Source: Mustelus asterias (lineage: Eukaryota). From it: a stretch of 64,000 nucleotides of DNA. Positions 19,746 through 56,199 of the stretch are shown in pieces. The stretch's first letter is position 1, and each line of letters opens with the position of its first letter. The notes below the pieces were generated by a model. The model ran no database searches. It saw nothing but the letters and a program-made list of their open reading frames with translations, and had not been told where the DNA came from. The position numbers and the translations under genes are program-made. The stretch is from NCBI RefSeq assembly GCF_964213995.1, contig NW_027590172.1, positions 1 to 64,000 of the forward strand. The letters run 5' to 3'.

Positions 19746-19811
19746 CCTCCCAATTCTCCTGAAGGTGCTGATTGAGGCTGATTGACAGATCCATGCTCAC
19801 TGCTTCCTGTC
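19746..19811 (-). other. Predicted 66-nt leader exon with uORF start (ATG 19794)
   Basis: TGTCCAG acceptor, G|GTGAAT donor. Same length at 46037-46102 and 54473-54538. Confidence 0.6.
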
Positions 19812-20904
19812 CTGGACACACAGACCATAACAAATAGGAGCTGCAGTCGGCCATTTGGTCCATCGAGCCTTTTAAACTATTCAATGAGATAATTCGTTCA
19901 TCTACCTCAGCATCATTCTCCCCACACTAAACCCATATCCCTTGATATCTGCAATATCTAGAAACCAATCAATATCTCTCTTGAAAATAGTTGATGACCG
20001 AGGCTTCACTGTCCTCAGGGGTTGAGAATTCCAAATCTTTTCCACATCCTTGAGTGAAGAAATCCCCTCACATATTAGCTTTTGCTCCATCTTCTTGTCT
20101 GTTCCCCATAACTCTTGACACCATTGTCAGTCAAAGATCTGTCTAACTGGAATATATTCAATGATCCTCAGCCTCCACTGGTCCCTGTGGAAGAGAAATC
20201 CAAAAGACTAACAACCCTCTGAGGGAAGAGATGTCTGGAAATATATAACGTAGCTACAGTTCCAGATTACAAGATATTCAGATCCCAAGGAATATGACTC
20301 TGTCTAGATGTGACGGTTGAGATTTTTGCCTGTGATTCCTTGTTCAATATCCTATGAAATGAGTTTGCAAAAGTCATCACAGTCAGAATAGGATAGAAAT
20401 TCAGAGCAGACAATTCTAGTTTCTATGGAACATTCGTTCCTATTTCATTCCCAAAAAGTTGTAAATCTCCATCCATATCTATGGATTCTATTTAAAAATG
20501 AAAGTGGATGGGCACTTGAAGGAAATAAACTTTCAGGAGAATGGGGATATAGAGGGGGAATGGGACTGGAATGTTATACAGAGAGTCAGCATGGACTCGA
20601 GTTACCAAATGGATTCCTTCTGTGCTGTAATGACTTTATGACTGGAAATGTATAACATCGCTGCAGCATTATATTACAATGCAAGAAATAATAATAAATA
20701 TATTTTATTACAGAAACATAAATAATATATCTAATCTGGGTACCTTATAACAACACTAGACATATCTCTGTCCTATGTTAATTTACTGTCCCCTTAAATG
20801 TCAGCCATCTCCTGGGGAAAGCTGCCCTTTAATGTGAACATGAGGAAAAAGACCATCCTTTTAGACAGACAAATAAATGTGTCAAGCTGAGGGAGCAAAG
20901 GATG

Positions 20905-21383
20905 TTCACCAGGCTGATTCAGGGAATCGCGGGACTGATGTATGAGGAGAGATTGACGAGGTTAGGATTGTTTTCGTTGGAGTTCAGATGAATGAGGGGG
21001 GAATCTCATAGAGACTGATAAAATTCTAACAGGTCGAGACAGGATAGATGCAGGGAGGATGTTCCCGATGGAGTCCAGAACCGGGGGTCACAGTCTGAGG
21101 ATTCAGGGCAGACCATTTAGGACAGAGGTGAGGAGACATTTCTTCACCCAAAGAGTGGTCACCCTGTGGAATTTATTACCACAGGAAGTAGTTGGTGCCA
21201 AAACATTGAATGTATTCAAGAGGCGGCTGGATAAAGCACTTGGGGTGAATGGGATCACAGGTTATGGGGAAAAAGCAGGATGAGACTACTGAGTTGGATG
21301 ATCAGCCATGATTGTAAAGAATGGCGGAGCAGGCTCGAAGGGCCAAATGGCCTCCTCCTGCTCCTATCTTCTATGTTTCTATA
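20905..21383 (+). mobile_element. CR1/HER1 LINE 3' fragment
   Basis: SRTGGHSLRI..FRTEVRRHFFTQRVVTLWN motif, tail TCTATGTTTCTAT. Confidence 0.85.
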
Positions 21384-21411
21384 TCAATGTCTTTAAGAGA
21401 GAGAGAGAGAC

Positions 21412-21471
21412 CTGGGCCAATCTTCACAGAGTCTGCAGCTTCCCTGGATTCACTTCTTTTCCCTTCAGTTG
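21412..21471 (-). other. Predicted 60-nt leader exon
   Basis: Polypyrimidine tract and TTGCAG acceptor, CAG|GTCTCT donor. Same length at 33364-33423 and 55676-55735. Confidence 0.55.
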
Positions 21472-21532
21472 CTGCAAGTCCCCAATTTCCCCCAGAATGA
21501 GAAAAGAAAGTGTTTTACTCACAGATGTTGGC

Positions 21533-53139: not shown

Positions 53140-53417
53140 CAGGGACCCGGGTTCAATTCTGGCCTCGGGTCACTGTCTGTGTGGAGTTTGCACATTGTCC
53201 CCATGTTTGCGTGGGTTTATTCTGGGTGCTCTGGTTTCCTCCCACATTCCAAAGATGTGCGGGTTAGGTTGATTGGCCATGCTAAATTGCCCCTTTATGT
53301 CAGGAGATTAGCAGGGTAAATATGTAGGGTTATGGGAGTGGAGCCTGGGTGGCATTGTGGTCGGTGCAAACTCGATGGGCCAAGTGACCTCCTTCTGCAA
53401 TGTAGGGATTCTATGAT
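53140..53417 (+). mobile_element. HE1-like SINE, 5'-truncated
   Basis: B-box onward family sequence. Confidence 0.8.
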
Positions 53418-53431
53418 TAAAAAGAAAAGGT

Positions 53432-54538
53432 CTCTAATCGGTGTGAACTTGCTGGTGTGTCAGCAAGTTGGATGACTGATTTAAACTTTCCCTGAACTCA
53501 AAGCAGGGGAATGGCCTCTCCTCAATGTGGACTTGCTGGTGTCACAGCAGATTGGATGAATCAATGAATCTCTTCTCACACACACAACACATTAATGGTC
53601 TCTCTCCAGTATGAATACATTGGTGCATCAGCAAGTTGGATAACTGAGCGAATCCCTTCCCACACAGAGCAGGTCAGTGGCCTCTCACCAGTGTGACCAC
53701 ATTGGTATTTCAGCTGACTGGATGATTCAGTGAATCTTTCCCAAGGAGCAGGTGAATGGCATCTCCCTGTTGTGAACTCACTGGTGTGTCAGCAGGTTGG
53801 ATGACTGAATGAATCCCTTCCCACACACGGATCAGGTGAATGGCCCCTCCCCAGTGTGAACTCGCTGGTGTGTCAGCAAATGAGATGACCGTGTGAATCC
53901 CTTCCCACACTCAGCGCAGGTGAACAGCCTCTTCCTGGTGTGACTGCGGTGACTCACCTGAAGAAGGGGCTTGGAGCTCCGAAAGCTTGTGTGGCTTTTG
54001 CTACCAAATAAACCTGTTGGACTTTAACCTGCTGTTGTTAAACTTCTTACTGTGTTTACCCCAGTCCAACGCCGGCATCTCCACATCATTAGAACCTTCT
54101 GAAGCAGACATTTCTTTATCCACGCTTTCTTCATACACACTCATATAATGATCCAATCAATGCCCTCCATCTGTACATACTTCAATTCAATTCTAGACTG
54201 AAAGACCAATGATATTCAGGTCCCTTTGAATTGAGTGAATGTGTCAGGTCATGATGTGACATTTGGTTTTGAGATTTCTGTCTGCAAATCTTCTCCTTCT
54301 CAAAACCTGTAAAAGGAATTTACAAAAGTAATCCCTGTCAGTACAGGAACAAAATTCAGAATTCACAATTTCATTTTTAGTTGCACATTCTTTCTGGACT
54401 TGTTCACCAAAAGCTGTGAATCTCAATCTCATACATTATCTCTACCCTCAAACTGCTGTACCTCATATATACCCTCCCAATTCTTGTGAAGATGCTGATT
54501 GTTCCTGACTGACAGACCCATGCTCACTGCTTCCTGAG
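53432..54538 (-). pseudogene. ZNF pseudogene: decayed fingers (53432-53950) and orphan leader (54190-54538), split by Penelope and LTR fragments
   Basis: Frameshifted fingers; acceptor at 54307; 66-nt exon 54473-54538. Confidence 0.75.
53952..54088 (+). mobile_element. Penelope terminal repeat with minimal hammerhead ribozyme motif
   Basis: CAC-CTGAAGA-A-GGGGC-TTGGA-GCTCC-GAAA-GCTT-GTG (53955-53991), then AATAAA. Confidence 0.8.
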
Positions 54539-54669
54539 CTGGAGAACTAAAAACTTTGATGCAGACTGCTAGACTAAATACAAACACAGAGGTACAGATT
54601 CTGGAGGAAAACATATGTTTAATAAACACTGCTGCATTACTTGATCAGAGATTGTCAGAGAGGACTTGA

Positions 54670-55075
54670 TCAGAGAGGTCGGGAATGTAGCCCAATCCAT
54701 CACGCAACCCAGTCTCCCATCCATTAACTCTGTCTACACTTCCTGCCGCCTCAGCAAAGCAGCCAGCATAATTAAAGACCCCACGCATCCCGGACATTCT
54801 CTCTTCCACCTACTTCCGTCGGGAAAAAGTTACAAAAGTGTGAGGTCACGTACCAACTGACTCAAGAACAGCTTCTTCCCTGCTGTCATTAGACTTTTGA
54901 ATGGACCTACCTTGCATTAAGTTGACCTTTCTCTCAACCCTAGCTATGACTGTAACACTACACTCTCTCATTTCCTTCTCTATAAATGGTATGCTTTGTC
55001 TGTATAGTGCTCAAGAAGCAATACTTCTCACTGTATACTAATACATGTGACAATAATAAACAAAATCAAATCAAA
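54670..55075 (+). mobile_element. Rex1/Babar-type LINE 3' end
   Basis: KAASIIKDPTHPGHSLFHLLPSGK..LKNSFFPAVIRLLN, then AATAAA and CAAAT tail. Antisense copy at 59735-60090. Confidence 0.8.
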
Positions 55076-56199
55076 AAAGATTCACGACCAGGTCATTAAG
55101 AACTTCATTAAGGTGCTGAGTGTTCACAAACACAAACTCACTGCTTCTGAGGAAGGTGGAATTAGAGATGATCCAAGATTTCAACTGAACTGGCTGGACA
55201 ATTGGAGGAAATAATCTTGTGAGATACAGGGGAACAGAGGGAGAATGGGACTGACTGGATTGCTCTACAGAGGGTCAGCATGGACTCGAATGGACATATT
55301 CTGTGCTGTAATGGATCAATGACTGGAAAGGTTTGTCACTACAGTGCTATATTACAAACTTGAAATAACAATAAATGAAATCTATCACAGAACCATAAAT
55401 ATATCTAATAGGTACCTAAAAGCAAAACTAGACATAACTCTGTGCTACATAAAATTAGTGTCCCACAAAGAATCATAAATTTACACCAGATTACACCAAA
55501 AATACACATACCTGTCATACCTTATTACTTTGTCCCCTTCAATGTCAGCCATTTCCTGGGGAAACCAACCCTTTAATCATGAACATTAGGAAACAGACCA
55601 TCCTTTTAGCCAGACAAATAAATGTGTCAAGCTGAGGGAGCAAAGGATGTCAATGTCTTTCAGAGAGAGAGAGACCTGGGCCAACCTTTCCAGAGTCTGC
55701 AGCCTCCCTGGATTCACTTCCTTTCATTCCAGTTGCTGCAAGTCCCCAATTTCCCCCAGAATGAGAAAAGAAATGGAAAGGGGGATAAAAGAAAGTGTTT
55801 TACTCACAGATGTGGCTGAGAGACTGCGAGTGCGTGAGAGAGAGAGAGAGAGACTGTGACTGGCTGCACTCAGTAAAACCATTGTCCTACAGAATGCAGG
55901 CTCCGTCTAACTCATCCCATCAAACTCTGCTGTATCTTGCCGTTGGCTGAAGTTTCACAAAACGTATTCTAAAAGCAAACTGCATCCATGTTATAATTCA
56001 AAACACATGTTTTAAATGAGGAATACTTGTTATTCAGTTAAAGCTGTCTTTTATAATGACAGCTCTCGTCAGTGCTTTAAGATCATTCACTCTTAAGTCA
56101 GTATTGTGTTAAAGTTCTCAAACATTGTTTGCTATTAGCCTAATTTAGCCCCACTACACTCAGTCTCCACATTTCCATGGTTTCTCCCCAATGTAACTT

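Follow-up and report, generated by a model that had tools for sequence, protein, structure and literature searches.

Short blocks upstream of tandem C2H2 zinc-finger genes in the shark Mustelus asterias are probably co-duplicated untranslated leader

We analysed a window of 64,000 nt from Mustelus asterias (GCF_964213995.1, contig NW_027590172.1, positions 1–64,000) that comprises a tandem cluster of approximately 11 C2H2 zinc-finger units from a shark-type family. Blocks of 60 and 66 nt that recur upstream of the fingers (Table 1) are probably part of a co-duplicated 5′ untranslated leader of these KRAB-less genes, the peptide that they could encode being unselected. As the blocks change like non-coding sequence, the shared mini-protein or new domain proposed in a preliminary description of this DNA most likely came about as a side effect of recent gene duplication.

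Table 1. Leader blocks, finger exons and associated features of the cluster
Feature	Positions	Strand	Remarks
66-nt block, 19-kb unit	19746..19811	-	Upstream ATG 19794; AG..GT-bounded
66-nt block, 45-kb unit	46037..46102	-	Upstream ATG 46085; AG..GT-bounded
66-nt block, 54-kb unit	54473..54538	-	Diverged (56/66 identical); upstream ATG 54521; AG..GT-bounded
66-nt block, upstream of 29-kb unit	32616-32584	-	5′ half only; ATG kept, donor lost
60-nt block, 19-kb unit	21412..21471	-	AG..GT-bounded; 51-nt putative intron upstream, donor GT at 21522
60-nt block, 36-kb unit	33364..33423	+	AG..GT-bounded; 72-nt putative intron upstream
60-nt block, 54-kb pseudogene unit	55676..55735	-	AG..GT-bounded
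Decayed 60-nt block, upstream of 6-kb unit	8763..8842	-	Acceptor and 5′ part only, start 8804
Decayed 60-nt block, upstream of 29-kb unit	within 32584..32770	-	~25 nt from 32732
Decayed 60-nt block	46192..46257	-	Start ~46219; ~90 nt upstream of 46.1-kb 66-nt block; upstream donor deleted
Finger exon, 19-kb unit	18540..19583	-	Acceptor 19583; main ATG 19232 (CACCATGG); 8 intact fingers
Finger exon, 45-kb unit	44517..45868	-	Acceptor 45868; main ATG 45527; 12 intact fingers
Finger exon, 54-kb unit	53441..54306	-	Array broken by stops and frameshifts; pseudogene
Finger exon, 36-kb unit	36027..36966	+	Main ATG 36376; 7 intact fingers
Finger exon, 62-kb unit	61855..62804	+	Phase 1 open to main ATG 61959; 8 intact fingers
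Promoter-like GC-rich region, head-to-head	32780..33291		Between 29-kb and 36-kb units
Local duplicate: last intron end, acceptor (20351), linker start	20273..20472	-	19-kb unit, between 60- and 66-nt blocks

The units are tandem C2H2 zinc-finger genes with the finger array in one exon, of a shark-type family without a recognised effector domain. Intact finger motifs (7–12 per unit) were present in 7/11 units, and Pfam zf-C2H2 was found in each of the three finger ORFs scanned. The same sequence, CACCATGG, marks the main start in 7/7 units. Stops lie in frame between the acceptor and the main ATG in all six MEK-type units with a mapped acceptor (across 351 nt in the 19-kb unit, where a branch-point-like TACTGAC accompanies the acceptor), broken fingers occur upstream of the MEK start, and the finger exon carries further upstream ATGs in 6/7 units scored. 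The finger exon of the 54-kb unit yielded no MEK-type start, and the best stop-free stretch of this unit holds no intact finger after a Met. The promoter-like region has paralogues at 8780–9265 and 46196–46652, and positions 33080–33205 (+) match the first segment of catshark RefSeq models. We propose that each unit was copied whole, from the promoter-like region through the short leader segments and a last intron that keeps a conserved branch point to the single finger exon, and that the finger protein starts at an internal ATG 100–360 nt into that exon. The 60- and 66-nt blocks would be portions of the 5′ untranslated leader, probably truncated, lost or frame-shifted freely among units.

All six blocks listed in the preliminary description are exactly 60 or 66 nt long, bounded by AG and GT, and stand at the positions and on the strands it gave, but four decayed copies had been overlooked. 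It was also correct to regard the blocks as a shared leader of the zinc-finger units. The 66-nt block is intact in 3/11 units, and both blocks are intact in only two of the 11 (19-kb and 54-kb). Neither was found upstream of the 62-kb finger exon, and in the 36-kb unit the 60-nt block is followed by repeat sequence, with no 66-nt block, up to the finger exon. The block copies probably resemble each other because the units are recent duplicates. The 60-nt copies are identical at 52–56/60 positions, and the 38 preceding intron bases at 38/38 in all three pairs (a comparison window picked once the alignment had been viewed). The 66-nt block of the 45-kb unit matches that of the 19-kb unit at 65/66 positions, and the next 60 intron bases match at 59/60.

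An intron as well conserved as the block could mean that the 66-nt block, perhaps both blocks in this genome, is itself co-duplicated intron or retained intron with an incidental AG and GT, and the 66-nt block occurs in 0/40 fetched gene-model proteins apart from the read-through protein P0002, which has a frameshift within it. We regard this as highly unlikely, however, since 4/4 copies of the 66-nt block keep the acceptor AG and 3/3 the donor GT despite differing upstream flanks, and the 60-nt block is joined to other segments in RefSeq models. In Scyliorhinus torazame, five RefSeq proteins (XP_072363096.1 and four cluster mates) consist of a promoter-proximal segment, the segment homologous to the 60-nt block of the 36-kb unit in phase 0, and the linker that begins the finger exon, joined directly; they contain neither the 66-nt block nor fingers. 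Splicing of the 60-nt block is thereby supported indirectly, by predicted catshark gene models. Two features of this block count against its being a leader exon, namely a donor (GTCTCT) far from consensus and the shortness of the upstream intron in the 19-kb unit (51 nt).

Phase 1 is, as had been reported, the sole frame open in 6/6 copies; in the 60-nt block, phase 0 is open in one of three copies and phase 2 has two stops, whereas phase 2 of the 66-nt block is open in 3/3 copies without an ATG. This openness had been read as a sign of coding, yet it does not exceed chance: in a simulation of neutral substitution, all six copies stayed open with P=0.45. A given frame is open in 12 % of shuffles of the combined 126 nt, and the chance that both block lengths are multiples of 3 is 1/9; these two figures count against the blocks being untranslated leader. 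The 17 changes counted in phase 1 comprise 14 non-synonymous and 3 synonymous (3.6 synonymous expected if neutral), omega is 1.14 and 1.48, and the 66-nt block has seven non-synonymous changes and one synonymous among its few copies. No purifying selection is seen on the phase-1 frame, although with only three copies per block a weak constraint could escape detection.

A phase-1 micropeptide or live N-terminal domain conserved across the family, as originally proposed, would account for the frame being open in every copy and for the 61855 exon, which does indeed remain open in phase 1 into its eight intact fingers. However, that unit has neither block upstream, the 54-kb frame stops ahead of broken fingers, and in none of the 40 proteins fetched is either block connected in phase 1 with the linker or a finger. 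Together with an omega of 1.1–1.5, uORF lengths that vary and homologues that use other frames, this leaves the proposal largely refuted on the window copies, and extremely unlikely overall. Exon length and frame, whose loss across copies had been named beforehand as refuting the proposal, are not conserved across the copies examined. Of the peptides quoted at the time, the one from the 60-nt block is a composite found exactly in 0/3 copies; the title peptide is present in two of three 66-nt copies.

The upstream ATG of the 66-nt block has the strong Kozak context previously described (A at −3 and G at +4 in 3/3 intact copies), and it is kept in 4/4 window copies and in the homologue P0002, a retention that also counts against an untranslated leader. 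The predicted uORF from ATG 19794 has 18 codons if spliced and 19 with the 162-nt intron kept; that from ATG 46085 has 36 and, with the 168-nt intron kept, 19; and that from ATG 54521 has 57 if spliced. A stop follows in every case, after 18–57 codons spliced or 19–30 unspliced. Once spliced to the finger exon, the phase-1 frame of the 19232 gene stops immediately and that of the 45527 gene runs on for 20 codons, in agreement with the preliminary description. The 54.3-kb frame had been thought to stay in register with the fingers; it meets a stop at 54184–54182, eight codons past the quoted EYH, and as the array is also broken it never reaches the fingers. No upstream domain in frame with fingers, such as defines KRAB-ZNF genes, is therefore present in the three units with an intact 66-nt block, where a stop comes first in each. 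Nor do these few copies show the dN/dS below 1 and constant length of a conserved-peptide uORF, the predicted lengths differing by unit (18, 36 and 57 codons).

Upstream ATGs generally reduce main-ORF output. The 66-nt block may be an optional exon; if it is present in the mRNA, spliced or with the short intron kept, its ATG would capture scanning ribosomes and less finger protein would be made, while the peptide from this ATG would have no selected sequence. A stronger version, in which the 66-nt block is a cassette under selection whose inclusion brings a strong ATG into the leader and acts as a family-wide switch lowering finger translation, with position rather than peptide sequence mattering, seems to us unlikely. 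It would fit the retained ATG and the invariable stop after it, the skipping or absence of the block in catshark models, and the precedent of a splicing-controlled uORF in the published extract of PMC12219734. Against it, the block is intact in just 3/11 units, other upstream ATGs occur in most finger exons, and the 66-nt copies have diverged by no more than 15 %, which makes selection unnecessary to explain the retained ATG.

The linker between acceptor and fingers has no fixed frame in the window. At the 11 acceptors it is in register in phase 1, 2 and 0 five, three and three times, respectively; mismatches are 24.6, 22.6 and 22.8 % at codon positions 1, 2 and 3, i.e. without codon bias, and 2/25 indels (not independent of one another) are multiples of 3. 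In predicted proteins of other sharks, it is entered in phase 2 in 20/29 by pattern (21 on adding P0003 by eye) and in phase 1 in one, the set of 29 including P0017, a repeat protein treated as a false match. The acidic linker is in frame with fingers in proteins of Pristiophorus, Heterodontus, Carcharodon, Cetorhinus, Mustelus, Scyliorhinus and Stegostoma, and no common block was found upstream of it among these proteins. A likeness of P0027 to the 66-nt block noted by eye was dropped as it had no tblastn support at E≤0.05, as were phase-2 words in P0007, which were located at unrelated places.

That the linker is recognisable as protein across several shark orders fits a coding past and speaks against the untranslated-leader reading. 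The leader could be the relic of a once-coding N-terminal module, an analogue of KRAB or FiNZ that became UTR after internal ATGs took over, and the symmetric block lengths and the broken fingers ahead of the MEK start are compatible with this. We nonetheless judge it very unlikely: the linker is mostly in phase 2, a frame with two stops in the 60-nt block and without an ATG in the 66-nt block, the sequences upstream of it in linker proteins share no block, and the leader readings tested have no Pfam match. Also unlikely is a combined account, in which a large KRAB-less shark family is gated at translation by the ATG of the optional 66-nt exon across hundreds of paralogues, the leader being a decayed ancestral N-terminal module and the acidic phase-2 linker all that is left of it, which might remain coding in one or another subfamily.

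Transcript data were drawn from three runs guessed to be RNA and one unlabelled run (X17), aligned to positions 19150–21700 at 82 % likeness; the best RNA-guessed runs came from other organisms, with 0.15–0.29 of words present. No joint between the 60-nt block, 66-nt block and finger acceptor occurs among the 15 joints listed of 174, in tables crowded by repeats, a blank that weighs neither for nor against splicing. Contig depth, which cannot rank parts of a gene, falls across the finger acceptor in X1–X3 (3522 to 305, 381 to 78 and 167 to 62) and rises in X17 (3838 to 8761), a weak hint that this acceptor is used; in the bin with the 66-nt block, depth (382, 84 and 46) is similar to that of adjoining intron bins.

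Word-indexed searches, which covered proteins of at least 71 residues, returned one match from two candidates for the 66-nt phase-1 reading (among proteins of 75–2000 residues), none from 19 candidates at E≤10 for the 60-nt phase-0 reading, and no match for the 62-kb linker. Protein P0022 contains the 60-nt segment and was missed, showing that such searches miss 20-residue matches, so the near-blank result for the 66-nt reading carries little weight. Leader readings scanned separately against Pfam gave no family at E≤1, and no KRAB (Pfam) was present among 10 homologue proteins; the leader readings tested thus do not appear to supply a KRAB domain from upstream exons. The 66-nt phase-1 reading had no match in the PDB and no usable one in the Atlas, where the linker reached only sub-0.9 zinc-finger clusters. 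Rfam yielded no matches, and none of six pattern scans across metagenome, viral and genome contigs found any. Folding of four block regions gave z scores of −0.7 to +1.7, indicating structure that is not unusual.

The cluster is reminiscent of the clustered KRAB-ZNF genes of tetrapods. The human 8q24.3 cluster, as described in extracts of PMC2865497, is likewise tandem: the last exon carries all the fingers, short exons lie upstream, untranslated 5′ exons occur, and some copies are degenerate or pseudogenes. In its ZNF252 the frame of the upstream exons does not match that of the fingers, and 5′ untranslated exons are there described as a theme common among human ZNF genes. The shark units differ in the lack of a KRAB match in the leader readings tested, a start inside the finger exon and no coding constraint upstream. 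Cyprinid FiNZ-ZNF genes are, in the excerpted accounts (PMC10547256, PMC11603059, PMC11620358), also a C2H2 family that expanded in one lineage and shares a small exon upstream of the finger exon; FiNZ is there an acidic domain of 28 residues, highly conserved and translated in the finger frame. Compared by description, the shark blocks lack conservation at the protein level, most units have them in decayed form or not at all, and their frame does not continue into the fingers; no FiNZ-like short N-terminal peptide is conserved across most members. Leaders whose uORFs lower main-ORF translation (extracts of PMC5961209, PMC12219734) resemble the putative multi-exon leader of the shark units in a strong upstream ATG, a stop far ahead of the main ATG and possibly an optional exon, although the shark leader is known here from DNA, in few copies. 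Shark RefSeq models named ‘zinc finger protein 239-like’ or ‘uncharacterized’ (e.g. XP_072363096.1, XP_067869838.1) have the same linker where the finger exon starts. They are automated models rather than protein evidence; those with the 60-nt block, namely XP_072363096.1 and four cluster mates, depart from the window leader in reading it in phase 0, with neither the 66-nt block nor fingers.

Untranslated leader exons and stray upstream ATGs are commonplace in duplicated zinc-finger genes, and as it stands the finding has little significance. Its useful outcome is the anatomy of a shark zinc-finger leader, of which we found no earlier description in the literature searched, along with a caution that automated shark gene models run finger proteins through the leader in differing frames. 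Cartilaginous fish are reported to have no KRAB-box families in the available part of PMC8455134; translational gating, if true, would explain how they control a large finger repertoire. The shared leader sequence would then also offer a handle for family-wide knockdown, as zebrafish FiNZ genes have, by the extract of PMC10547256, been knocked down via shared sequence.

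The window carries approximately 11 C2H2 zinc-finger units (g6, g10, g16/17, g19, g29, g36, g45, g48, g54, g57 and g62, named by kb position) on both strands, interspersed with repeats. We refer to the family as shark-type because the proteins matching the start of its finger exon are named from seven shark genera. The three 60-nt and three 66-nt leader blocks of the preliminary description were all recovered, preceded by AG and followed by GT. With blocks assigned to units by strand and position, each type is intact in 3/11 units and both in two, one of them a pseudogene (g54). 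Four decayed copies had been overlooked.

Positions of leader blocks, promoter-like regions, repeats and duplicated or decayed segments
Feature	Position (strand)	Remark
60-nt block	21412-21471 (-), 33364-33423 (+), 55676-55735 (-)	intact
66-nt block	19746-19811 (-), 46037-46102 (-), 54473-54538 (-)	intact
60-nt block, 5' parts	upstream of g6, g29 and g45	decayed
66-nt block, half	upstream of g29	decayed
GC-rich promoter-like region, first type	8780-9265, 32584-33080, 46070-46652	
GC-rich promoter-like region, second type	24242-24717, 58105-58570	
Retrotransposon-like ORF fragments	21540-22773 (-), 30606-31361 (-), 34050-35700 (+), 39087-41082 (+)	
Integrase-core-like fragment	13615-14022 (-)	Pfam rve, E 5.5e-05, below curated cut-off
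Related sequence	15392-16220, 51997-53026	decayed
g10/g48 segmental duplicate	9924-12588 / 48304-50881, with 9209-9848 / 46747-47743	80-96% identical
19-nt tandem repeat in duplicate	9378; 46917	4 copies; 22 copies
26-nt repeat of duplicate	50831-51797	36 copies after expansion
38-nt tandem repeat	46605-46804; 9209-9265	5.3 copies, 98% alike; single copy
G-rich 16-21-nt tandem repeat	814-2714	~1.9 kb, N runs, long spurious proline frames
Two stop-bearing decayed fingers	19583-19233 (-)	equivalents in g10, g29, g36, g45, g48
Duplicate of last-intron end, acceptor and linker start	20273-20472 (-)	inside g19 leader

Phase 1 had been singled out as a shared reading frame, and it is indeed the only one open in 6/6 blocks; however, it is distinguished only by pooling, since all three 66-nt copies are also open in phase 2, and one of the 60-nt copies is open in phase 0. 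The upstream ATG has the strong context reported for it (A at -3, G at +4), the frame stops immediately in g19 and after 20 codons in g45, and the 61855 exon is open in phase 1, as described. The g54 frame, said to remain open and in register with the fingers, instead ends 8 codons past the reported peptide; its finger array is broken, with no intact finger after a Met. Only g62 has phase 1 open into the fingers, and it has neither block.

Substitutions relative to the majority sequence numbered 5, 1 and 3 in the 60-nt copies and 1, 0 and 10 in the 66-nt copies. In phase 1, the 60-nt block shows seven non-synonymous and two synonymous changes (neutral expectation 2.2 synonymous; omega 1.14) and the 66-nt block seven and one (expectation 1.4; omega 1.48). 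No frame of either block shows a significant synonymous excess, and the lowest omega belongs to phase 0 (0.51, 0.72), which contains stops. When an equal number of neutral changes was placed in 20,000 trials, phase 1 survived in all six copies 45% of the time. All three copies agree at every one of the 38 intron bases ahead of the 60-nt block, the block itself matching at 52-56/60; beyond the 66-nt block, g19 and g45 share 59 of 60 intron bases. The likeness of the blocks is therefore attributed to recent duplication, and perhaps to splice-signal constraint, rather than to a peptide. A conserved phase-1 peptide or domain could draw on both lengths being multiples of 3 (chance 1 in 9), on a given frame being open in just 12% of shuffles and on the low power afforded by only 17 changes; we regard it as highly improbable.

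Searched against 1.84 billion representatives, a profile built from seven window linker readings (the linker being the exon start ahead of the fingers) retrieved 29 proteins at E<=0.001. The exon start is read phase-2-like in 20 (21 with P0003, by eye), in phase 1 in one and in phase 0 in two, the rest being unclassed; this pattern was picked after viewing the proteins, mostly automated models, and phase was deduced from residues, not DNA. None of the 40 proteins fetched joins a block in phase 1 to linker or finger; word-indexed searches are weak for matches this short, and one missed P0022. Five Scyliorhinus torazame RefSeq proteins (P0022, P0034-P0037) join a segment matching 33080-33205 to the 60-nt block, read in phase 0; three residues and the linker follow, with neither the 66-nt block nor any fingers. 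This order lends indirect support to splicing of the 60-nt block, in a frame other than phase 1 and without the 66-nt block. Another protein, P0002, matches the 66-nt block with an internal frame shift, as from a 10-nt loss, and continues into the intron. No run recorded as RNA contains the stretch, and among the 15 joints listed of 174 from reads placed on 19150-21700, none was a leader junction. That the blocks are relics of a coding module is decidedly unlikely, and that they are no exons at all is slightly less likely still.

Eight of the 11 finger-exon acceptors are of one conserved kind, accompanied by a conserved branch-point-like motif; g6, g57 and g62 have a second acceptor type. Within the first 72-89 nt of the exon, the linker motif is in register with phases 1, 2 and 0 in five, three and three of the 11 acceptors, and mismatch at codon positions 1, 2 and 3 is 24.6, 22.6 and 22.8%. 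Indels are multiples of 3 in 2/25 cases, a count that depends on the majority reference and includes indels shared by related units. In all six MEK-type units with a mapped acceptor, the stretch from the acceptor to the main ATG contains in-frame stops, and the context of that ATG is CACCATGG in 7/7; thus, the finger proteins start within the last exon and the upstream sequence is leader. Two decayed fingers with shared stop positions precede the MEK start, which stands in place of the usual finger-linker; the first stop is the exact end of several RefSeq 'uncharacterized' proteins (P0003, P0013, P0021). The duplicate inside the g19 leader, together with RefSeq proteins carrying two linker copies (P0004, P0011), suggests that an additional leader exon may be supplied by the start of the linker.

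At three places, divergent finger units flank a promoter-like region of the first type in head-to-head arrangement; the region of g45/g48 (the g48 unit is frameshifted) contains the 38-nt repeat. The second type is probably another first exon, given its match to the N-terminal segment of P0013 (a Heterodontus RefSeq model). The integrase-core-like fragment is probably an LTR-element remnant. The retrotransposon-like fragments look reverse-transcriptase-like by eye, a label we presume; a Pfam scan of 22051-22770 gave no match. One starts ~15 nt upstream of the first donor of g19; another occupies the expected site of the g36 66-nt block. The window contains 315 N.

KRAB-ZNF clusters are described with 5' untranslated and out-of-frame upstream exons (PMC2865497), and the window cluster is similarly built; FiNZ genes likewise have small shared upstream exons (PMC10547256, PMC11603059, PMC11620358). 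Unlike the defining features of both, the window leader has no domain match in the readings scanned, no conserved peptide and no in-frame fusion. PMC8455134 reports an enrichment of KRAB-box families among the families that cartilaginous fish have lost. Searches of the open-licence literature turned up no account of the leader of shark zinc-finger genes or of an N-terminal domain in them.

We consider it reasonably likely, and the likeliest mechanism, that each unit would use a GC-rich promoter region, often in head-to-head arrangement, for its transcription, with splicing joining its short leader to the finger exon and translation starting at the internal ATG. Where the message includes the 66-nt block, its ATG would open a frame of 18-57 codons (19-30 with the intron kept) ending before the main start. 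Under general scanning rules an upstream ATG frame reduces main output, and from this established knowledge the block should lower finger-protein yield. A selected translational switch controlled by splicing is unlikely. The repeated leader blocks are real and their cause is ordinary; the residual lead, a slim one, is the shark-wide linker with a possible uORF switch.
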